This document shows positions 4,340-21,509 of a DNA stretch of 59,977 nt, piece by piece; position 1 is the stretch's first letter, and the number at the start of each line of letters is the position of its first letter. The notes under the pieces were generated by a model. The model worked only from the letters and a program-made list of their open reading frames with translations, had not been told where the DNA came from and searched no databases. The DNA is from a virus (lineage: Duplodnaviria; Caudoviricetes): positions 1 to 59,977 of IMG/VR virus record IMGVR_UViG_3300025853_000004. One strand, written 5' to 3'. The translations under genes were made by a program, and so were the position numbers.

Positions 4340-4459
4340 TGTGGATAAGTCGCGGATCGCGGTGTGGATAACTTGAAATTTTATCCACAAGCTAAGTTAT
4401 TGATTTTATGCGAGAATCGCAACCCCTGGCGCTGCTTGCAGCTGCACGTTTTATCCACA
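4340..4459. promoter_or_regulatory. Four perfect DnaA boxes with an IHF consensus site
   Basis: TGTGGATAA at 4340 and 4363; TTATCCACA at 4381 and 4451; 4393-4405 reverse complement AATCAATAACTTA matches WATCAANNNNTTR. Confidence 0.8.
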
Positions 4460-4703
4460 AAAAATCGCGATTCACGGCACGATAAAAACGCGTCGCCAGT
4501 CTTACCGATCCGCACTGGATTAAGTCACCGATCCGCCGGCCTCGATCCGCTCGACTGGATAGCGCGCCACGCTCCGCCGATCCGATCCCCTGCCACGCCG
4601 AAAACGAACCGATAACCAGTGGCCAGTTATCCGTGGCTCACGGCTCGCGGTACGTTTGGCAGGGAGCGCGGCCGACGGCGCGGGGCTTGATTTACTACCG
4701 GCG

Positions 4704-4730
4704 AAAAAAAGCCCGCACGATGGCGGGCTT
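4704..4730 (-). terminator. Rho-independent terminator ending the small-gene cluster
   Basis: aagcccgc-catcgt-gcgggc followed by T7 on the minus strand. Confidence 0.85.
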
Positions 4731-4746
4731 GATTGGTTGAGACGGG

Positions 4747-5094
4747 TTAACCGGTCACGGGATCACAAAGCCGTTGAGTGACAATGTCAAAATACACCCG
4801 CTCAAATTCGCCGATCTCGATGACGTCGCGCCCGATAATCAACACTGGCTCCCAGTTGCGTTGAGCGAACCGGTAGTCGAACCCGTAGAAGTTGAGAACG
4901 CCGTTAAGCCGCTCCCGAGTGGTCACAGTGTTCCAACCTGCCAGAGTCAACGCGAGGGTATCAGTGTCGCCGGCTTTCCACGCGATAGCGTTACCGTGTA
5001 ACCAAATAGTCTCACCATCGGTTGCGGTGTTGCCAAGTATGCGGGGTTGAAACCGCGCCCAAGATTGGACGATTTCTCGTGTAACTTTTCTCAT
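4747..5094 (-). CDS. Hypothetical protein (small-gene cassette)
   Basis: 115 aa; AGGGAATAG leader, own promoter and terminator; LHGNAIA...GW.T.TT.ERLN pattern typical of small phage proteins. Confidence 0.8.
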   Translation of the reverse strand: MRKVTREIVQSWARFQPRILGNTATDGETIWLHGNAIAWKAGDTDTLALTLAGWNTVTTRERLNGVLNFYGFDYRFAQRNWEPVLIIGRDVIEIGEFERVYFDIVTQRLCDPVTG

Positions 5095-5137
5095 TTTCTA
5101 TTCCCTTTAAGTTGCCGGCCGTTATTGGCCAGTCGCC

Positions 5138-5167
5138 AGTATAAACAACGGTATGCGAGAAACGCAA
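5138..5167 (-). promoter_or_regulatory. Sigma70-like promoter
   Basis: TTGCGT-N18-TATACT immediately after a terminator U-tract. Confidence 0.6.
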
Positions 5168-5200
5168 TAAAAAGGCCGGCGGGATCGCTCCGGCCGGCCT
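5165..5200 (-). terminator. Terminator; 36-bp repeat copy 1
   Basis: aggccggccggagcgatcccgccggcc-TTTTT; 35/36 identical to 6435-6470. Confidence 0.85.
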
Positions 5201-5217
5201 CGCATATTGCGGACTGG

Positions 5218-5709
5218 TTAACTAACGTCTATCGATAAAACGATGTCGCCGTCGTTGATCATTTCGCGCACCACATCGCGCACCGCCGCATCGAATGAAC
5301 TGTCGCCGATGGCGTCCCCGATCCGCTCGTCTACATCGTCGCCGTCAATAAACGATGAACGATCAAAAGCATGCTCGATTTCTTTCTCGACTCGATCATC
5401 GACAATCGACTCGACGGCGTTTTGAAAATCGTTGCCGTTCAATACGTCATTCATCGCTTCATCAACCATCGACGTGAAGGCCGCCAGTATCTCAGGCTCA
5501 AGCAATGCGAACATGCCCGCCGTAATGTTCTGGTTTTTTTCAAGATACGAATTAGCACGGGTACGCTCCCGCTCGATCTCAATCTCAGCGACGTGAACTT
5601 TATTGCGGAGTTTCTCAATCTCAGCGCGTAAATCGTCCGGCGTAAACTCGGCGCGCTGTACTGGATCAAGTGAACCCAACTTATTCAATTCAGTTTTTAA
5701 ATCAGTCAT
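5218..5709 (-). CDS. Hypothetical protein, coiled-coil N-terminus and very acidic C-terminus
   Basis: 163 aa; leader CATAGGGAATAG; flanked by promoter and terminator. Confidence 0.8.
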   Translation of the reverse strand: MTDLKTELNKLGSLDPVQRAEFTPDDLRAEIEKLRNKVHVAEIEIERERTRANSYLEKNQNITAGMFALLEPEILAAFTSMVDEAMNDVLNGNDFQNAVESIVDDRVEKEIEHAFDRSSFIDGDDVDERIGDAIGDSSFDAAVRDVVREMINDGDIVLSIDVS

Positions 5710-5750
5710 TTTTCTATTCCCTATGTTGCGGCCGGTAGTGGCCAGTCCTG

Positions 5751-5780
5751 ATTATGCGATAAACGCAACCGATAGTGCAA
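5751..5780 (-). promoter_or_regulatory. Sigma70-like promoter
   Basis: TTGCAC-N18-CATAAT. Confidence 0.6.
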
Positions 5781-5782
5781 AT

Positions 5783-5808
5783 AAAAAAGGCCGGAGTAAT
5801 TCCGGCCT
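5783..5808 (-). terminator. Rho-independent terminator
   Basis: aggccggaattactccggcc followed by T6. Confidence 0.8.
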
Positions 5809-5813
5809 ATTGG

Positions 5814-5990
5814 TTAGCTATGGGTATAGCCGTCGGGTTCGATCCCGAGCCACATACCACACCATCGGATCATATAACTGGTGTCGAAAGTGGCGCGCAT
5901 TGCACGTCGCCGAAACTCCAGAAACGATTGCGCTCCATCGGGATCGCGACAGAATACGCGGTGCAGTGATTCCAATTGCTGTCTGTTCAT
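5814..5990 (-). CDS. Hypothetical protein
   Basis: MNRQQLES...WCGMWLGIEPDGYTHS; GGAG RBS; tightly packed with neighbours. Confidence 0.7.
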   Translation of the reverse strand: MNRQQLESLHRVFCRDPDGAQSFLEFRRRAMRATFDTSYMIRWCGMWLGIEPDGYTHS

Positions 5991-5991
5991 C

Positions 5992-6177
5992 TCACGCTCC
6001 TCTCGGATCATCGTCCGCTCGAATATATTCTTCTTTCAACCAGAAAGAATGGTGCGGGAATTCCTGCCGCATTTCCTGAACTGTTTCGAGCGCATCCTCT
6101 CGGTCACATAAACAAAACCGATCATCCTCAACGCCGTCGCAGTACAGCACCAGAACATGCCCTGTTAACCCCATCAC
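5992..6177 (-). CDS. Hypothetical protein
   Basis: Fills the gap between neighbours; 4-bp overlap with the upstream gene. Confidence 0.55.
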   Translation of the reverse strand: MMGLTGHVLVLYCDGVEDDRFCLCDREDALETVQEMRQEFPHHSFWLKEEYIRADDDPRGA

Positions 6178-6374
6178 ATTTCCCCCCAACCGGCCGAGCG
6201 CAACCAAGTGTTGTCGGCCTCGCTGTCGTCCATAATCCGGCGAACTCGATCCGAGTTCTCACAAGCTTCGCACCATACTGGACTGCCATCGATCCCCGTC
6301 GAGCCGCAACGGTATTCCACTTCGCGGTAGTCATAACCGCGCGGTACATACTTAACGACAATATTTTTGCACAT
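6174..6374 (-). CDS. Small Cys-containing (Zn-finger-like) protein
   Basis: MCKNIVV...YRCGSTG...WCEAC; preceded by the AACTACGGGAG leader. Confidence 0.7.
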   Translation of the reverse strand: MCKNIVVKYVPRGYDYREVEYRCGSTGIDGSPVWCEACENSDRVRRIMDDSEADNTWLRSAGWGEM

Positions 6375-6408
6375 CTCATTTTCTCCCGTAGTTATGAAAT
6401 GAATTGAC

Positions 6409-6437
6409 AATATCGCATAGCTATTTCTAGCGGTCAA
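6409..6437 (-). promoter_or_regulatory. Sigma70 promoter
   Basis: TTGACC-N17-GATATT. Confidence 0.7.
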
Positions 6438-6470
6438 TAAAAAGGCCGGCGGGATCACTCCGGCCGGCCT
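6435..6470 (-). terminator. Terminator; 36-bp repeat copy 2
   Basis: Near-identical to 5165-5200; follows the DUF932 gene. Confidence 0.85.
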
Positions 6471-6486
6471 GTATTAGTCGCGGTAA

Positions 6487-7680
6487 TTAAGCGGCGACTT
6501 TGTCCAATAGTTTACCGGCGCGACGCTCAATTTCGATCCGGTTATCTTGGTGCGGAATATCACGAGCAATAGCAGTGATCGCTTGAGCCGCATCCCACAC
6601 TGATTCCATAGGACGTCCCTCCTCTTTAACGTGGCGTTGCATCGCGGCCTTGGCCATGCGCTGAGACAGCCCCGCACGCTTGGTTAAGAAGTCGAGCCTA
6701 TCGTCGTCAGTTTTGGCCACGTTAGCTGACTTAGCTTTCTGCACGCCTTCCACAAAAGTAGACGTCGCACCAGTCGCAAACGATTGCAGGGCAGGGCGCG
6801 CCTCAATGGCGAAACGATCCGGAGCGAACTTAGTGTGGCGAATCTTGATCTCATGGAAATTCTCAACGCCCCATAAGTTGCGATTCATACATACGCCACG
6901 CAGGTACATGGCCGCCACGCCGGCGGTCTTACTGCCGGTCTCTGAATTCCACGCATAAAACCCGCGGAACATAAGGTCAGGTTCGCCGTTAGCTAGCTTG
7001 CCGACTTCAATCGGATTCCGATCATCAACCAAGAAAACAAAGATATCCCGATCACTGGCGAACAGCGTCGTGGTGTCTTTGGTGACTGGCACTTCCGGAT
7101 CATAGACGGCCATGCCGTTAGCCCCAGAACCAACCATCATCCCGGGTACTTTCCAACGCCCGCCGCTCGCATCAACCAAGTCTTTGATGGGCTTCAGGAT
7201 CTCATGATCGTAAATGCGGCCGTAGTCCGCACCAGTCGCCGCACGCAATTCGCCGTGATCGCCCTGACTGTACACCTTAACCAAGTCCCGAGACCGGTTA
7301 TGTTGCAAGCCCCACTGCAAGCAGTCCGCAACCATCGGGGCGGGCAGGTCTTTGAGATAACCGGCCGGCGCTCCCGCCAGTTGAGCTAACTGACCGAATG
7401 ACCAGTTGGTTGGCATGTTCTCACCCTCGATCCCGTTTTCATCACGATACTCAATGAACACGTCACCCCTCGATGGATTGTCAGCATCAACAGTGCCGAC
7501 GATATTCATCTTGTGAGTATCGACGATCCGAGACTTCATTTGACCGGCGTCGATCTTCTTGTGAGCCAACATGTCGTCGAGTGTAAGGAAGCGTTCATCT
7601 TCAGGGCGGTTGAACCAGTTAGATGAAACAGCAGAGTTGCCGATACCATGAGCAAAGGCGTTTGTTTGATAAGTTGCCAT
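6487..7680 (-). CDS. DUF932-family protein
   Basis: PTNWSFGQLA, LRAATG..YGRIYD, ASDRDIFVFL, RGFYAWNSETG, CMNRNLWG, IRHT, WDAAQAITAIAR; start set at MATYQT after the AACTACGGGAG leader. Confidence 0.8.
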   Translation of the reverse strand: MATYQTNAFAHGIGNSAVSSNWFNRPEDERFLTLDDMLAHKKIDAGQMKSRIVDTHKMNIVGTVDADNPSRGDVFIEYRDENGIEGENMPTNWSFGQLAQLAGAPAGYLKDLPAPMVADCLQWGLQHNRSRDLVKVYSQGDHGELRAATGADYGRIYDHEILKPIKDLVDASGGRWKVPGMMVGSGANGMAVYDPEVPVTKDTTTLFASDRDIFVFLVDDRNPIEVGKLANGEPDLMFRGFYAWNSETGSKTAGVAAMYLRGVCMNRNLWGVENFHEIKIRHTKFAPDRFAIEARPALQSFATGATSTFVEGVQKAKSANVAKTDDDRLDFLTKRAGLSQRMAKAAMQRHVKEEGRPMESVWDAAQAITAIARDIPHQDNRIEIERRAGKLLDKVAA

Positions 7681-7727
7681 AACAAAATCTCCCGTAGTTA
7701 TTGGCCGAGCAAAATTGCTCACTGGTA

Positions 7728-7756
7728 ATAGTCTGATAAAACGCAACGATATGCAA
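7728..7756 (-). promoter_or_regulatory. Sigma70-like promoter with AT-rich upstream tract
   Basis: TTGCAT-N17-GACTAT. Confidence 0.55.
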
Positions 7757-7773
7757 GTAATTTTTTAGAAAAT

Positions 7774-7804
7774 AAAAAGGCCGGTTAGGTTGCCCCAACC
7801 GGCC
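7774..7804 (-). terminator. Rho-independent terminator
   Basis: ggccggtt...aaccggcc stem followed by T5. Confidence 0.8.
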
Positions 7805-7809
7805 GTGGT

Positions 7810-8031
7810 TTAGTACGAACCTTCCCCGTTGTAGACACCAAGCTTTGCGAGTTCAAAGCCGTCTATGTCTGGCAACTCAACTCCGCGTTTAATTAGTTCA
7901 TCGGTATATGCTCGAAAGTAAGCATGGTTCCAATGGGATTTGTTATGCCCGATGCAACCGTAATCGGTAGCCAAGGCATTGCGGCGGAATTGTTCTAACT
8001 GTTCGTTAGAAAGGTTAGTCAAATCACGCAT
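7810..8031 (-). CDS. Hypothetical protein
   Basis: 73 aa; AACTACGGGAGG leader; own promoter and terminator. Confidence 0.8.
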   Translation of the reverse strand: MRDLTNLSNEQLEQFRRNALATDYGCIGHNKSHWNHAYFRAYTDELIKRGVELPDIDGFELAKLGVYNGEGSY

Positions 8032-8112
8032 GGTGATTCCTCCCGTAGTTGATTGTTAAGTAGCTTTCTCAGGGGCTTCCTGAGATGACTGAGATTTCCC
8101 AGTCATGTGGCC

Positions 8113-8141
8113 ATTATCGCATACCTGATTCGGGTTGTCAA
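8113..8141 (-). promoter_or_regulatory. Strong sigma70 promoter with UP-like element
   Basis: TTGACA-N17-GATAAT preceded by TTTTTAAAAAATTAAC. Confidence 0.8.
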
Positions 8142-8176
8142 GTTAATTTTTTAAAAAGTTATTTGGGGTTGGGTAC

Positions 8177-8199
8177 AAAAAAGCCCCGACTGGCGGGGC
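8177..8199 (-). terminator. Rho-independent terminator
   Basis: gccccg-ccagt-cggggc followed by T6. Confidence 0.8.
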
Positions 8200-8301
8200 G
8201 TAGTGGTTAACGGCGACGTCGCCGCTTCACGGGTTTCTTCTGTGCTTGCTCCCAAGCGTCTTCGCCGTAGATCAACTTCATCACCCATTCAATCAAAAAC
8301 A

Positions 8302-8553
8302 TTAAACATTCTCCCCTTTGGCGTAGTCCATGATAAAGCCGAGTTTCTCGCACAGTCCGATCACATCTGCCGGCAATTCATATACGCCGTCGTAGTCAAC
8401 CAGAACGACGCCGTCAAACCACAGACCGCCGCTCCCCCCTTCATCACCTAACTCAGCGTGTTCAAAACCAATCGGTGTTCCCTTTTCATCAAGGTATACC
8501 GTCCAGTCTTTCCGAGTTATGTAGCGATTCAAAAGCCCCTCATGAATTTGCAT
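8302..8553 (-). CDS. Hypothetical protein
   Basis: FEH..LGDEGGSGGLWF....LVDYDGVYELP pattern; in a coupled operon. Confidence 0.7.
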   Translation of the reverse strand: MQIHEGLLNRYITRKDWTVYLDEKGTPIGFEHAELGDEGGSGGLWFDGVVLVDYDGVYELPADVIGLCEKLGFIMDYAKGENV

Positions 8554-8743
8554 CAGATTCCTCCACTGCATAAGTGTCGCACCAACCGATGGCTTCAAAG
8601 ATTTCATGGTCAGTCAGCGATGCGATTCGTTCAACGACAGCCAACCGAACTTGAGCCGGAGTGATATCACGGCCGTCTTCCTGATAAGAAAGGATAGTGA
8701 AGGCGATGTCGTACATGTGGTTGTACGCTGTTTGATCTTTCAT
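8540..8743 (-). CDS. Hypothetical protein
   Basis: Overlapping start/stop with both neighbours. Confidence 0.65.
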   Translation of the reverse strand: MKDQTAYNHMYDIAFTILSYQEDGRDITPAQVRLAVVERIASLTDHEIFEAIGWCDTYAVEESDANS

Positions 8744-8955
8744 GACTGAAACTCCCAATCAACAGCCGAATCAATCACGTCCCAATTGATGCCGTAGTTA
8801 GCATCAAAGTCGTCACAAATTCTTTCCATGATTGATTCGATCTGATCCATAGTCAGATCAGAGTGACCCATCGCTTCCGCCCGTTCGCGGATATCATCTG
8901 GGTACCAAAGGTCTTCAATGACTAACGTGCCATTGCGTTTCACTAATTTACTCAT
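8740..8955 (-). CDS. Small acidic hypothetical protein
   Basis: 71 aa; AACTACGGGAGG leader; FDANYGINWDVI. Confidence 0.75.
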   Translation of the reverse strand: MSKLVKRNGTLVIEDLWYPDDIRERAEAMGHSDLTMDQIESIMERICDDFDANYGINWDVIDSAVDWEFQS

Positions 8956-9000
8956 CGCTAATTCCTCCCGTAGTTGTTAGCGAGTTTGCAGATTATGCGA

Positions 9001-9940: not shown

Positions 9941-10070
9941 TGCCCCTCCGAACAGTAAATGGTCGTATCAGAGTTAAAATATAGCCTTCTTTCTTATATA
10001 GAGCAAAATTCAAAAGAAATATTTTTTGCATCTCCCCCCGCCTAACGCACTTTTGATTTATTGATTTCTT

Positions 10071-10312
10071 GGTTACATATTTGTAGTTACATGGTGTAAC
10101 AGTTTATGTAACCACTGAAAGTCTTGCTATATAAGGGATAGAGCGGTTCGGTTACACGGTTACACCGGTTACGGCTATTTTTTCAAAAAAATATTTTTCT
10201 AATTTCTGAGCCATATAAGTAACGTGTATTTTTTGTAACCAAAAACAAGAAAGCCCCGTGAGCCGTGGACTCCGGAGCTTTCCCCTCTGTTACACAATCT
10301 GTAAAAGTTACA
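10071..10312. repeat. Array of ~11 GTTAC(A) motifs in both orientations with AT-rich tracts (candidate origin or pac region)
   Basis: GTTAC/GTAAC near 10072, 10086, 10096, 10108, 10151, 10159, 10168, 10219, 10235, 10289, 10307. Confidence 0.75.
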
Positions 10313-10613
10313 CCCAAACCGCTCCAAAGAGCGTTTTCTTATCAATAAACCTCGATGCCCACCGTTCGGGGTTCTTCTCAATTTCTTCAGTAATTTTAGG
10401 GTGGGAGCATGATCCGCGAAGCCCTAATTGCGATTGCATTAAGAATTGATTTGCTTCATTTCTCCAATAAAGGAGTTCTTCAGAGGGTTCGTCATCGCTT
10501 TCGACGTCGAGTTCGTTGGCCATGAACCGACAGAATTCGGCACAGGTATCGACAGTGTATAGACCGTTAAAGTCCAACAGAATTTGTGGAAGTTTTTCCA
10601 TAATCATTCCCAT
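10308..10613 (-). CDS. Hypothetical protein
   Basis: 101-aa ORF in the minus-strand operon. Confidence 0.6.
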   Translation of the reverse strand: MGMIMEKLPQILLDFNGLYTVDTCAEFCRFMANELDVESDDEPSEELLYWRNEANQFLMQSQLGLRGSCSHPKITEEIEKNPERWASRFIDKKTLFGAVWV

Positions 10614-10627
10614 AGTGTGTTTTGTAA

Positions 10628-11209: not shown

Positions 11210-11238
11210 TTCGGTTCTCCCGTGTAGTTGAGATTCGG

Positions 11239-11267
11239 ACATTAGTCGTTTATCGCATACATGTCAA
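11239..11267 (-). promoter_or_regulatory. Sigma70 promoter
   Basis: TTGACA-N17-TAATGT. Confidence 0.65.
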
Positions 11268-11278
11268 CACCCCAGACG

Positions 11279-11345
11279 AAAAAAAGCCCCGAAAGTCATA
11301 GGGAACTAACGGGGCTTTGGAGTCAACTACGGGAATAGTTGTGCA
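11279..11345 (-). ncRNA. Terminator with 3'UTR antisense to early-gene leaders (candidate sRNA)
   Basis: Stem gccccg/cggggc with T7; preceded by CTATTCCCGTAGTTGA; loop contains TTCCCTATG. The terminator is well supported, the sRNA is inferred. Confidence 0.45.
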
Positions 11346-11347
11346 AA

Positions 11348-11557
11348 CTATATCGCTTTATGAGAATTGTGCAAACGTTTTCTTTCACTTTCTCTGGCAA
11401 TCTCACCCACAAGGCGCGCAAATTCTGTCAGTTCTTCCAGATTTGCAATGTAGCCACGGCAACCGTTCCGCAGGGCAAGTAGTGTTTTGTCTTCATCCTT
11501 GACGATACCGGCTTTGACCGCCAACTCATGAATTAAGTTTTGCTTGACGTCCATCAA
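11348..11557 (-). CDS. Hypothetical protein
   Basis: 69 aa; ELA.KAG...L.EFARLV...ER pattern. Confidence 0.65.
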   Translation of the reverse strand: MMDVKQNLIHELAVKAGIVKDEDKTLLALRNGCRGYIANLEELTEFARLVGEIARESERKRLHNSHKAI

Positions 11558-15118: not shown

Positions 15119-16626
15119 AGCTCGTAACTCCTTGATACGTCTTCCGGTTCTACAATAAATAAGTTTTGCCTTGCTCTGGTCACGCCAACGTAAAACACCC
15201 GATGCAAATCATCGGGGTTGTTGCGTGCCGCTTTTTCTGCCGCAGGGGATAAATCTGTAAAAAGTACAACGTTGTCCGCTTCACCGCCCTTTGACCCGTG
15301 GATCGTGGACACCGTAATGCGAGGCTCGCCATTGAACTTTTCTCCGCGACGCAAGAGCGCAATGATGTAAGCCCGATCCTGCTCTGGCAGTTTGTCCATC
15401 GCGACGTGCCAGATCATCTCTTTGTTTGCATTAAGCCCGTGATCCGCGATTAGCGTATCCAGATCAACCATGTCCTCATCGCCAAGCGCAGGCAGTTTTT
15501 TAAACCCCCTCGCCACACGTTCTTTGCCGCTCATGAACGCGTAGATGTTCCGCGCTGTCTTGCCTGAGATTTCACGGCCCTTGCGTAATGCTTCCCAACC
15601 ATTGACGGCGTCGGCTACTTTCTCAGAAATAGACCGGTGTCCGCGGTAGTTGAACAGATAACCGTTTGACTTGAGGTCGGTCGCAACGGGCGACAACTGG
15701 TAACCCGCTTGTGACAGGATCAGCCACGATCCGTTAGCCATGTCGATTCCATCAATGGTCGAGATGCTGCTAACTTGCCCACGATCTGTTTTTGGTTCGT
15801 AGCGTTTCGGGAACCGTCGGCTAATCCGGTTGGAAATGTTTTCCGCCACGGCATGAACTGAAGACGGCACACGATACGACTGCGCTAAGATCTCAGAACC
15901 GCCGTCCAGATTGATGAAATGATCGACGTCTGCCCCTGCCCAACGGTAGATCGCTTGGTCGTCATCTCCCGCGCAATACATCTTGTCGGACATGTCATCC
16001 AGAATATGCGCGATATCCCACTGCAACGGGGACAAATCCTGCGCTTCATCCAGAAACGTCAGCTTAAACCGGTGCTTGAACGTCGGTGCTTGTTCCACAA
16101 ACAGTTCCAGCATGTCGGTGAAATCGCATAGATTGTACAAAGTCTTGTACTTGCGTAACGATTTATCGACGTAATTGACCGTATTCCAGTCAACATCCAG
16201 TTCGCTTTCGTTGTACTGCTCGCGCAATGGCACCTTACGAAGCCGCGCAAGGTTAATCAAACCGAGCAAGGGGTCGTTTGTTTTAGCCAGATCCATGAAA
16301 TCATCCGAACCTTGTTTGGAACCAAAGAGTTCCACGCCGATGGCATGGCTTAGTTCCTTGTAATGCTCTGGTTGCATGATCTGCTCAGAGCTAATGTCGG
16401 TCATGGACAAGGCAAGGCTGTGCAACGTCCTGAAAAATATCAGATCGTTCTTGGCATCAAGGCTGAACCTTTCGGCCGCACGCTCTTTTGCTTCTGTCGC
16501 CGCTTTCTTAGTGAAGGCAAGGAAGGCAATCTCTTGAGGCAATACGCCTGATTCGAGCGCCTTATCTACCATATTAAGTAGCGTTGTTGTTTTTCCGGTT
16601 CCCGGTGGTCCGAAGATTCTGAACAT
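15115..16626 (-). CDS. UvrD/Rep-like SF1 helicase
   Basis: GPPGTGKT, AFT, LDEAQD, GDDDQAIY, QSYR, STIHGSKGGE, YVGVTRA. Confidence 0.95.
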   Translation of the reverse strand: MFRIFGPPGTGKTTTLLNMVDKALESGVLPQEIAFLAFTKKAATEAKERAAERFSLDAKNDLIFFRTLHSLALSMTDISSEQIMQPEHYKELSHAIGVELFGSKQGSDDFMDLAKTNDPLLGLINLARLRKVPLREQYNESELDVDWNTVNYVDKSLRKYKTLYNLCDFTDMLELFVEQAPTFKHRFKLTFLDEAQDLSPLQWDIAHILDDMSDKMYCAGDDDQAIYRWAGADVDHFINLDGGSEILAQSYRVPSSVHAVAENISNRISRRFPKRYEPKTDRGQVSSISTIDGIDMANGSWLILSQAGYQLSPVATDLKSNGYLFNYRGHRSISEKVADAVNGWEALRKGREISGKTARNIYAFMSGKERVARGFKKLPALGDEDMVDLDTLIADHGLNANKEMIWHVAMDKLPEQDRAYIIALLRRGEKFNGEPRITVSTIHGSKGGEADNVVLFTDLSPAAEKAARNNPDDLHRVFYVGVTRARQNLFIVEPEDVSRSYEL

Positions 16627-16783
16627 TCCCGTAGTCCTTTGGATTGTCTTCTACCTTTTTAATAATCTGACGCACACGTTCGCGCGACAGCCCCATGCGT
16701 TTTCCGATAGCGGTCAAAGTCATGTAATACTTCGTTCGCATCTCGTAAATCTGAAAGTCTCTTTCACGGTTGTCCATTGGCAT
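16574..16783 (-). CDS. Sigma70 region-4-like HTH protein
   Basis: TLTAIGKRMGLSRERVRQI versus sigma70 region 4.2 TLEEVGKQFDVTRERIRQI. Confidence 0.8.
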   Translation of the reverse strand: MPMDNRERDFQIYEMRTKYYMTLTAIGKRMGLSRERVRQIIKKVEDNPKDYGNVQNLRTTGNRKNNNAT

Positions 16784-19965: not shown

Positions 19966-20001
19966 GCGCTTTCCTCCGTTATTAAAGGCACCGTTTGGGC
20001 C

Positions 20002-20042
20002 TTGACATTTCTATATATAATCCTATGATTAGCAAGAGTCAA
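20002..20042. promoter_or_regulatory. Overlapping divergent sigma70 promoters
   Basis: Plus: TTGACA-N16-TATGAT. Minus: TTGACT-N17-TATATA. Confidence 0.7.
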
Positions 20043-20054
20043 GGGGAAAGTGAC

Positions 20055-21509
20055 ATGAATTTTGAAAACTATGAATTTAAGACTAAGCCGTATGATCATC
20101 AGCTTAACGCGCTACGCGACTCGTGGGCCGCGGAATACTATGCGCTGTTCATGGAGATGGGAACGGGTAAGTCGAAAGTTACAATTGATACGATGGGTAT
20201 GTTGTATGAAAAAGGTCATATCGACGCGGCGCTCATCATTGCTCCGAAGGGCGTCTACGATAACTGGGTTCGCAAAGAATTAGAAGCCCATTTGCCTGAG
20301 CGCATTGCAACGCAGGTCGTCCGTTGGACGCCTTCTGGTGCCAAGAGTTATCAGGACGAGCTAGTCAAGTTAGTCTACGAAGCCTTTGAAGGGCTTAAAA
20401 TTTTTGTGATGAACGTTGAGGCGTTTTCTACCCCACGGGGTACGCGAGCCGCGTATGAATTCTGCAAAAAGAATCCTGATAATTTAGTGATTGTTGATGA
20501 ATCGACGACGATTAAGAACAGAAAAGCACAGCGGACCGCGAACATTGTAGAACTGTTGAAGGTCAGCAAGTACCGTCGCATCCTCACAGGTTCTCCTATT
20601 ACAAAGTCCCCGATGGATTTGTTTAGCCAGTGCGCGTTCCTGTCCCCCAAGGCGCTTGGTATTAACTCGTACTACGGCTACCAGAACCGTTACGCCGTTG
20701 TACAGAAGCGCACGATGGGTCACAAAAGCTTTAATGAGATCACCGGCTACCGTCGTCTGGATGAGCTAAACGAAAAACTCGATAAGTTCAGCAATCGCGT
20801 ACTGAAGTCAGACTGTCTGGATTTGCCAGATAAAGTGTACATGCGGCGCAACGTCAGCCTGACCGATGAGCAAGCCAAAGCCTACAAACAAATGCAGAAA
20901 CTTGCTTTGGCAAAGCTGGAGTCTGGAGAGTTATCCACAACTGCGTCGGTATTAACCCAAATTATGCGATTACAGCAAATTTGTTGTGGACATCTTCCTG
21001 ACGATGCCGGTGATTTGCATACTTTAAAGAGCAATCGTTTGTCAGAACTGCTTGATATTATTGAAGAAACTTCTGGCAAGATCATTATATGGGCAACCTT
21101 TACGCATGATCTGAAGATTATTTATTCAGAGCTAACCAAGAAGTATGGCGAAGGCTCGTCCCGCATTTACTTTGGCGAGACGCCGCAGGATGAACGGCAA
21201 GAGATTGTTGAAACGTTCCAAGATCCTAACAGCGAGCTACGATTCTTTGTTGGCCAACCCCGCACAGGGGGCTACGGCATTACCCTGACCGAAGCAGGTA
21301 CTATGATCTACTACAATAACGGTTACGACTTAGAGATACGCTTGCAGTCAGAAGATCGCGCTCACCGCATTGGGCAAGAAAAGAACGTCACTTACATTGA
21401 TATTGTCACGCCAAACACCGTAGATGAAAAAATCCTCGGTGCTTTACGAGACAAGATTGATATCGCAGGTCAGGTCTTAGGTGAAGATACTAAGACTTGG
21501 TTGATCTAG
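20055..21509 (+). CDS. SNF2-like SF2 helicase
   Basis: EMGTGKS, IVDES, LTGSP, GGYGITL, QSEDRAHRIGQ; start at MNFENY after AAGGGG. Confidence 0.93.
   Translation: MNFENYEFKTKPYDHQLNALRDSWAAEYYALFMEMGTGKSKVTIDTMGMLYEKGHIDAALIIAPKGVYDNWVRKELEAHLPERIATQVVRWTPSGAKSYQDELVKLVYEAFEGLKIFVMNVEAFSTPRGTRAAYEFCKKNPDNLVIVDESTTIKNRKAQRTANIVELLKVSKYRRILTGSPITKSPMDLFSQCAFLSPKALGINSYYGYQNRYAVVQKRTMGHKSFNEITGYRRLDELNEKLDKFSNRVLKSDCLDLPDKVYMRRNVSLTDEQAKAYKQMQKLALAKLESGELSTTASVLTQIMRLQQICCGHLPDDAGDLHTLKSNRLSELLDIIEETSGKIIIWATFTHDLKIIYSELTKKYGEGSSRIYFGETPQDERQEIVETFQDPNSELRFFVGQPRTGGYGITLTEAGTMIYYNNGYDLEIRLQSEDRAHRIGQEKNVTYIDIVTPNTVDEKILGALRDKIDIAGQVLGEDTKTWLI

Follow-up and report, generated by a model that had tools for sequence, protein, structure and literature searches.

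Small RNAs can derive from the 3' untranslated regions (3'UTRs) of bacterial mRNAs, either by transcription from an internal promoter or by processing of the mRNA, as exemplified by DapZ, MicL, and CpxQ. C-rich RNAs that pair with Shine-Dalgarno sequences are found in Firmicutes and include RsaE/RoxS, the loops of RNAIII, and the icaR 3'UTR with its UCCCCUG motif. The small sar RNA of phage P22 blocks a ribosome-binding site and is a true antisense transcript, encoded on the opposite strand of its single target, and the c4 RNA of P1 and P7 is released by RNase P. To our knowledge, phage small RNAs mostly target host genes or a single phage operon. In the sections of PMC12197685 and PMC8198154 devoted to it, the c4 antisense RNA (P1/P7 immI) is described as pairing around a ribosome-binding site through short complements presented in loops, which blocks translation. 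CisR is summarized as a 3'UTR-derived RNA acting on a phage mRNA (CTX-phi). For the T4 genes e, soc, 49, and I-TevI, the corresponding sections of PMC3014915 describe a Shine-Dalgarno sequence that is sequestered by an upstream arm on long early transcripts, with the gene's own promoter located between the arms; the same source describes T4 RegB and RegA, by which many early initiation regions are inactivated in a coordinated way via a common Shine-Dalgarno motif. The present locus comes from the virus record IMGVR_UViG_3300025853_000004, a complete record of 59,977 bp with direct terminal repeats, all of which was analyzed (hereafter the window). On its minus strand, between the last gene of a small regulatory operon and the terminator of that operon, lies a 20-nt element which is complementary to the leaders of several phage genes. 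The element is real and conserved and, judged from its sequence, probably an anti-Shine-Dalgarno RNA.

The favored explanation, to which we give a probability of about one half, is that a small RNA acts in trans on the set of leaders, and in cis on the adjacent gene upon read-through, by blocking 30S binding. The features on which this explanation is built are:

11348-11557, minus strand: 69-aa gene, last gene of the operon; its TAG stop (11350-11348) precedes the element.
11347-11375, minus strand: predicted promoter, with -35 TTGCAC (11374-11369), a 16-nt spacer, and -10 TATAGT (11352-11347) overlapping the stop codon.
11322-11341, minus strand: anti-leader element CAACTATTCCCGTAGTTGAC, 20 nt, 3' of the stop of the 69-aa gene and 5' of the intrinsic terminator.
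11324-11341, minus strand: hairpin HP1, a 7-bp stem CAACUAU/GUAGUUG whose last pair is U-G, with the loop UCCC at 11334-11331.
11319-11323, minus strand: linker ACUCC, C-rich and single-stranded (ACCCC or ACUCU in relatives).
11279-11318, minus strand: intrinsic terminator, with the stem AAAGCCCCG/CGGGGCUUU, an inner stem, the C-rich loop CCCUAU, and U7 (11285-11279).

Read from the minus strand, the RNA after the TAG stop is UUUGCACAACUAUUCCCGUAGUUGACUCC, with UUUGCA-CAACUAUUCCCGUAGUUGAC-UCCAA as the finer division, followed by the terminator hairpin and U7. A first-pass annotation of the window had placed the element between the stop of the gene at 11348-11557 and its terminator, and its position, sequence strings, and coordinates proved correct.

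In their logic, the P1/P7 c4 RNA and the 3'UTR-derived small RNAs are the closest described systems. As with c4, to the extent that it is covered by the sources above, a phage RNA is encoded upstream of its targets and on the same strand, with the complement located at the target ribosome-binding site. However, c4 acts on a single operon (icd/ant) and determines immunity in temperate phages, whereas here one seed matches 5-9 initiation regions on separate transcription units. The element RNA would also end at its own terminator, and no family of Rfam 15, c4 included, matches the element at an E value up to 1. Bacterial 3'UTR-derived small RNAs share with it the position at an mRNA 3' end, the shared terminator, a conserved single seed, and a predicted promoter in the upstream coding region; they differ in that the predicted RNA described here is phage-encoded and aimed at the phage's own genes. 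Similarly to the C-rich RNAs of Firmicutes, UCCC or CCUCC is found in loops and linkers which could pair with G-rich Shine-Dalgarno sequences, but there is no sequence relation and the seed runs 7 nt past the Shine-Dalgarno sequence into a phage-specific leader. Unlike P22 sar, the element RNA is encoded elsewhere and on the same strand as its targets. The motif shared at the Shine-Dalgarno sequences of many genes recalls the account of T4 RegB and RegA in PMC3014915, where the effectors are proteins (a nuclease and a repressor), while the candidate effector here is an RNA. Across the portions of the literature covered by a non-exhaustive survey, no phage RNA was found which addresses many of the phage's own genes via a shared leader.

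The leaders complementary to the element are the following:

8965-8976, minus strand: leader CAACUACGGGAG of gene 8955, 11-nt perfect complement.
8040-8052, minus strand: leader UCAACUACGGGAG of gene 8031, 12-nt perfect complement.
7689-7699, minus strand: leader AACUACGGGAG of gene 7680 (397-aa, DUF932), 10 nt.
6383-6393, minus strand: leader AACUACGGGAG of gene 6374/6379, 10 nt.
5714-5725, minus strand: leader CAUAGGGAAUAG of gene 5709, 8 nt, to the 5' half of the element.
5098-5105, minus strand: leader GGGAAUAG of gene 5094, 8 nt.
10606-10615, minus strand: leader CUAUGGGAAU of gene 10601/10613, complement via G-U wobble.

The maximal perfect complement of the 3'UTR to the gene 8031 leader is 12 nt (8052-8041). 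Perfect complements of 11 nt are found at the gene 8955 leader (8976-8966) and at a helicase start (16635-16625), of 10 nt at genes 7680 (7699-7690) and 6374 (6393-6384), and of 8 nt at genes 5709 (5721-5714), 5094 (5105-5098), and 11209 (11231-11224). The complementarity of 10-12 nt claimed by the first-pass annotation for 6374, 7680, 8031, and 8955 was measured as 10, 10, 12, and 11 nt, respectively, and the 8 nt claimed for 5094 and 5709 were recovered at both. Altogether, 8 of 86 crudely called translation-initiation regions share a perfect complement of 8-12 nt with the element. The sequence AACTACGGGA occurs exactly five times in the window, in four minus-strand leaders (6384, 7690, 8041, and 8966) and, on the plus strand, a single time within the element (11325-11334), where the plus strand resembles a complete leader, GTCAACTACGGGAATAGTTG. 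With up to one mismatch, 13 matches were found against 3.0 expected, a number reached in none of 100 shuffles. At the helicase site (16625-16635), ACUACGGGA abuts the ATG of a UvrD-like helicase (start 16626) without a spacer; either this start is mis-set or ACUACGGGA is not a Shine-Dalgarno sequence there.

To measure how unusual the element is, every 21-nt minus-strand window was compared with the 86 initiation regions and scored by perfect complements of at least 10 nt. Only the windows starting at 11335-11345 complement at least 5 of the 86 regions, while 2000 shuffles of the element gave a maximum of 1 and a mean of 0.03. The same was seen in a 56-kb relative (G001, 98% complete, 69-aa protein ~65% identical), where no window other than those that overlap the element (offsets -4 to +7) reaches 3 of 75 regions. 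Across whole records, one inverted copy is accompanied by four leader copies in G001 and by five each in G002 and G003. The complementarity of the element to the leaders is therefore real and far beyond chance. One further pairing had been claimed, between the terminator loop and the gene 5709 leader. The strings are present, as the loop 9-mer UUCCCUAUG complements CAUAGGGAA at 5725-5717, but the pairing is not conserved: relative L005 shares the terminator loop and has no CATAGGG site in its 12.2 kb, and two of the nine matching bases fall in the predicted inner stem. This match is therefore probably due to chance.

Homologues of the 69-aa gene, which flanks the element, were found at 26 viral loci and 40 metagenome loci; the amino acid identity of this gene is 52-99%. 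At 20 of the 26 viral loci the element directly follows the gene, and at the other six another open reading frame (ORF) follows at once. The 40 metagenome loci comprise 21 with the exact element, one in which it is deleted (L175), 16 with a different downstream context, and two that are cut off. The identical 20-mer is present in 33 distinct 160-nt contexts, and variants with 1-3 mismatches were not found in such a context. All 20 columns of the element (C60-C79) are invariant in an alignment of 13 sequences (A1) whose columns average 73% identity, and only the next promoter has a comparable block. Its 5' flank varies between clades (TTTGCA, TCGAACA, or TCTCGACATA), and the terminator stem of relatives shows paired changes on both sides (G-C to U-A) along with differing loops. 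The invariance of the element, set against a terminator that changes by compensatory pairs, implies a constraint on sequence and not on fold alone. All seven pairs of HP1 are invariant in 12 of 12 sequences, so that covariation neither supports nor contradicts the stem. Homologues lacking the element (L017-L020, L022, L024, and the 16 metagenome loci) have nothing resembling it within 600 nt, the best candidates carrying 6-10 mismatches.

Wider scans were also performed. The exact 18-mer was found in 23 contigs, one of which has an unrelated context: in L050, a 28-kb viral contig, it occurs once (1214-1231) without the terminator or the 69-aa gene and is probably a chance or coding occurrence. 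The 14-mer core was found in at least 116 stretches, nearly all of them unrelated coding matches, and the block conserved in the next promoter was found in 28 stretches, eight of them new, with the element upstream in none of these eight. Across these three scans and the search with the 69-aa protein, in viral and metagenome data, no clade with a variant seed was found. The element is also a sharp 20-nt marker of this phage group in metagenomes.

The predicted promoter at 11347-11375 was called purely from its match to the sigma-70-type consensus and is one of seven promoter-like matches in 15 kb of the window. An equivalent promoter was called in L009 (TTGCAA-16-TATCAT) and L198 (TTGCAA-16-TATAGT), that is, in 3 of 3 genomes scanned; in L009 and L198, each 600-nt stretch scanned gave only two promoter matches, this site being one of them. 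The pattern TTGCA[A/C/G]-16-TAT(AGT or CAT) is kept in 20 of 20 distinct upstream contexts, even though clades differ in the C-terminal peptide and in where the stop lies. Transcription from this site is predicted to start at about the first bases of the element (in the L009 clade ~7 nt before it) and would give a free-standing RNA of ~65-75 nt whose seed lies at the 5' end. For the 66-nt RNA, the predicted fold (-25.2 kcal/mol, z -7.1) consists of two hairpins, HP1 and the terminator, with HP1 itself predicted by RNAfold at -5.6 kcal/mol (z -3.3). As in other rho-independent terminators, a hairpin is followed by a U tract (U7), and its stem shows compensatory changes in relatives. A C-rich linker and a C-rich terminator loop (CCCUAU, CCUCCA, or UCCCUCCAA) are found in every clade, which gives the predicted RNA three C-rich single-stranded patches. 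This combination of a promoter-like site, a 5' seed, a terminator with U7, and C-rich patches is an architecture typical of base-pairing RNAs. Relatives of the region are present as contigs in four metatranscriptome runs, among them a 190-nt contig (X15) which spans 11277-11466 and stops 2 nt beyond the U tract.

The RNA would act as follows. It would form the last 65-70 nt of the small regulatory operon 12319-11348 and would probably also be made from its own promoter overlapping the stop codon of the 69-aa gene. In this RNA HP1, weak at 7 bp and with UCCC in its loop, would be joined by the C-rich linker to the strong terminator hairpin, which also has a C-rich loop and is followed by U7. 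The HP1 loop would first contact the GGGA of a Shine-Dalgarno sequence, after which HP1 would open to form a 10-13-bp duplex with (U)CAACUACGGGAG, or 8 bp with GGGAAUAG. This duplex would cover the ribosome-binding site of ~5-9 phage genes, mostly in cassettes located 0.1-6.3 kb downstream, and lower their translation. On transcripts which read through the terminator, the site of the adjacent gene would be masked in cis by the same pairing. Accumulation of the RNA, pairing in vivo, and repression as the direction of the effect are inferred. Pairing with the leaders is favored because it alone accounts for the uniqueness of the element, the complementarity of both arm and loop, the invariance despite a variable adjacent partner, the single copy, and the position close to the terminator. 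The first-pass annotation had proposed that one RNA could shut off the whole set of genes; this is partly supported, in that the element exists, has no counterpart elsewhere in the genome, is kept by extreme purifying selection, and complements the shared leaders, while the additional terminator-loop pairing with the gene 5709 leader did not hold up in relatives.

Between the small and large terminase genes (4400-9000), at least six small units were found, each with a sigma-70-like promoter, a leader, 1-3 genes, and an intrinsic terminator. The cassette promoters often have TTGCAx or TTGACA with TGCGATAAT / CGCATAAT. In relatives the same leaders precede other genes; this implies that cassettes are exchanged at conserved boundaries. 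The leader core CAACTACGGGAG is fixed in relatives before non-homologous genes. The GGGAATAG leader stays with homologues of 5094 (ATGAGAAAAGTTAC...) in each of the four relatives with such a homologue (L005, L043, L046, and L052). The leaders of 5709 homologues drift solely among sequences complementary to the element (GCAACATAGGGAATAG, GCAACTACGGGAATTT, and TTAACTACGGGAGTAT), and internal leader substitutions are C to U or A to G, with G-U pairs retained. The gene 8955 leader sits in the loop of a hairpin (CGCUAA/UUAGCG, 8958-8982) which ends at the start codon and whose arms vary pairwise in relatives (AGCUAA/UUAGCU and CGCUAA/UUGGCG). In five other phage contigs (L097, L125, L139, L142, and L149), the full merged leader ACTACGGGAATAGT was found right before ATGGAAAA..., together with additional ACTA[C/T]GGGA leaders.

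It is possible, though we propose it tentatively, that these cassettes make up a plug-in regulon, in which exchangeable cassettes with a universal leader are read by a single invariant phage small RNA, giving a phage of lytic type a trans-acting regulon for its own genes. If so, a gene landing behind the leader would at once share this post-transcriptional control, which might, for instance, shut off early or accessory genes at a set time. An RNA addressing a phage gene set via a common leader would be a compact means of timing expression without extra proteins, and it would account for the conservation of leaders past the Shine-Dalgarno sequence in non-homologous cassettes. Neither the phage nor its host has been cultivated, but since the promoters, the terminator, and the Shine-Dalgarno sequences resemble the standard bacterial types, the idea is open to reporter tests in E. 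coli.

Several results weigh against a trans-acting RNA. In ensemble co-folding, cassette leaders take the first six places among the 86 predicted partners (-12.2 to -9.5 kcal/mol, compared with a median of -4.3 kcal/mol), and the best is the gene 8031 leader (-12.2 kcal/mol). However, the net predicted binding is modest and does not stand out: the element RNA binds four initiation regions at -9.5 kcal/mol or below, a number matched or exceeded by 38 of 43 head-shuffled RNAs, and five of eight natural 3' ends containing a terminator also bind at least four regions at this threshold. Given these controls, the co-folding rank no longer counts as evidence: HP1 has to be opened at a cost in energy, and Shine-Dalgarno sequences are bound by C-rich single strands of any kind. 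A scan of raw duplex energies was uninformative, as G-rich coding sites dominate it. Fourteen of the 16 seed bases lie inside the element's own hairpin, and the gene 8955 leader reaches only -4.9 kcal/mol because of its own hairpin. The promoter matches 9 of 12 consensus positions, and the contigs from RNA libraries (ends at 11277, 11322, and 11330) show neither RNA ends nor strand. Covariation between seed and leader cannot be scored, both partners being invariant; the wobble-compatible pattern of leader substitutions comes from few events, and 8 of the 12 transitions that are possible would in any case fit it. L175, a metagenome contig of 1285 nt, lacks exactly the element plus its 5' flank (~30 nt), the loss lying between two GACTC repeats, but keeps the gene, terminator, and promoter, so that the element may be dispensable or the contig an assembly artefact. 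Finally, no anti-leader was found in the few kb examined of L097, L125, L139, L142, and L149 despite their leaders. The leader type therefore extends beyond the anti-leader clade, and its conservation does not require the element.

The main rival is an equally simple reading, masking purely in cis of the kind described for T4 e, soc, 49, and I-TevI, in which the element is the upstream arm and the leader of the adjacent 87-aa gene the downstream arm. Transcripts reading through from upstream would be masked, only those from the next promoter would be translated, and the distal matches would arise because the leaders are all alike. Two features are needed here:

11239-11267, minus strand: promoter of the next operon, with -35 TTGACA (11267-11262), a 17-nt spacer, and -10 TAATGT (11244-11239).
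11217-11231, minus strand: adjacent leader UCAACUACACGGGAG of the 87-aa gene (ATG 11209), the complement to the element being split into two blocks by a 2-nt bulge.

In the minimum-energy fold of 11360-11200, UCAACUACACGGG is the partner of the element, and pairing between the element and the adjacent leader (11-17 pairs) is found in the minimum-energy fold of 10 of 13 genomes (the window and 9 of 12 relatives), reaching over the start codon in the L009/L011/L013/L016 group. CAAC and CGGGA are retained in the adjacent leader, with varying bases between them (TAC, TGA, GAA, or AAA). Moreover, the promoter at 11267-11239 lies between the arms at 11341-11322 and 11231-11217, a layout which, like the predicted pairing of an upstream arm with the Shine-Dalgarno sequence, agrees with the T4 genes as presented in PMC3014915. 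Compared with that presentation, the arms here are ~95 nt apart and enclose a terminator, and the upstream arm is invariant and fits many other leaders better. Indeed, distal leaders complement the element better than the adjacent leader, which always pairs with a 1-2-nt bulge. A single partner would allow co-variation, yet the element stays invariant while the adjacent leader changes. Three of the 13 minimum-energy folds lack such pairs, with an ensemble value of 0.0 in L027, and the strong terminator between the arms (-25 kcal/mol RNA, U7) should permit little read-through. The conserved promoter-like site before the element would also have no role. We regard masking in cis alone as rather unlikely.

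A protein-recognized RNA hairpin has also to be weighed, either a nut/boxB-like site for processive antitermination past the many terminators downstream or a signal for mRNA stabilization or processing, read by a small protein from the same operon, for example the basic peptide or the zinc-ribbon-like protein encoded just upstream. On the minus strand, the DNA polymerase gene is followed by a terminator, a promoter, and the small operon 12319-11348, whose further genes include:

12319-12122, minus strand: RHH_5 regulator, first gene of the small operon.
11868-11728, minus strand: 46-aa, very basic ORF, overlapping its neighbors and conserved as a protein across clades.
11744-11526, minus strand: zinc-ribbon-like protein, a weak PF13453 match below the cut-off (E 0.0055, 16.5 bits against a cut-off of 22).

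The 46-aa ORF has the conserved pattern ...YLRYL.AK.RRL.KKA..VE[ED][KR]AIWLE..., with RRLYLRYLMAKTRRLLKKAQRVEEKAIWLE within it, and no family match was found for it; the peptide could bind RNA or DNA and may resemble lambda N. The 69-aa product has no Pfam or PHROG family. A hairpin of this kind would fit the position between stop and terminator, the single copy per genome, and the invariance of the stem, the loop, and the two following bases, as well as the conserved basic ORF and weak zinc-ribbon match nearby and the several terminators in the 7 kb downstream. It would leave unexplained why the arm and loop exactly complement the shared leader, a property unique in the genome. No conserved boxA-like sequence precedes the element, in contrast to a lambda nut site; its 5' flank varies between clades, and neither operon protein matches a family of RNA binders. 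Recognition of the hairpin by a protein is judged improbable.

Less probable still is a DNA operator, a palindrome CAACTA-N6-TAGTTG with leader DNA providing half-sites, bound by a dimeric regulator such as the RHH protein (12319-12122). The inverted repeat is near-perfect, the regulator is encoded first in the operon, and the second invariant block, in the neighboring promoter, looks operator-like as well. Nevertheless, the bases of the loop show the same invariance as the arms and are complementary to the Shine-Dalgarno sequence, the element lies 53-59 bp from the next -35 with variable spacing, the promoter of the RHH operon itself has no copy, and leaders contain one half-site at most. Lastly, the reading of the plus strand as the working leader and ribosome-binding site of an antisense gene (TTG 11339 or GTG 11341), which the first-pass annotation had named, for GTG 11341, as a possible refutation, is itself largely refuted and highly improbable: CAACTACGGGAATAG is indeed followed by TTG/GTG (ATG in the L009 group) and a genuine plus-strand gene exists elsewhere (SNF2 helicase, 19995-21509), but the frames are erratic among relatives (4-93 aa), with the GTG frame at 53, 53, 18, 53, 15, 15, 53, 15 aa etc. 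in close relatives and 15-19 aa in 5 of 22 distinct sequences, the TTG frame at 4-93 aa (4 aa in L026), and no promoter-like site upstream on the plus strand.

The ACTA[C/T]GGGAG sequence resembles the start of T7-type promoters. A reading as T7-type phage promoters was rejected, as a scan of nine large ORFs gave no RNA polymerase domain of this type; a PF00940 search of the record gave no match and was uninformative, since control genomes gave none either.

Nearly all genes of the window are carried on the minus strand. The encoded proteins include a DNA polymerase of family A, a UvrD-like helicase, and a primase-like protein, as well as both terminase subunits, small and large. Only one gene lies clearly on the plus strand of this otherwise single-strand genome, the SNF2-family helicase at 19995-21509 (SNF2-rel_dom and Helicase_C). 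Megablast and blastn gave no match of the locus itself to a deposited phage; only the DNA polymerase has relatives there, and these are distant (at most 56% identity), including Phage DSL-LC04 and HTVC023P-type pelagiphages. The DNA runs containing the stretch are freshwater metagenomes, and relatives of the region are present in marine and salt-marsh RNA libraries.

The promoter of the next operon holds the invariant block TTGACA[T/A]GTATGCGATAA, which covers the -35 and spacer (11250-11267), and an equivalent site was called in L009 (6301-6329). The block recurs in other phages (L157-L164) before different cassettes. In several relatives its spacer is palindromic (ATGCG-N5-CGCAT), suggesting that a phage repressor has its operator within this promoter. 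Between two operons, an AT-rich non-coding region (10066-10314) contains about a dozen GTTAC(A/C) / GTAAC repeats in both orientations together with A/T runs, and by its repeats it looks like an iteron-type origin or the target of a multi-site regulator.

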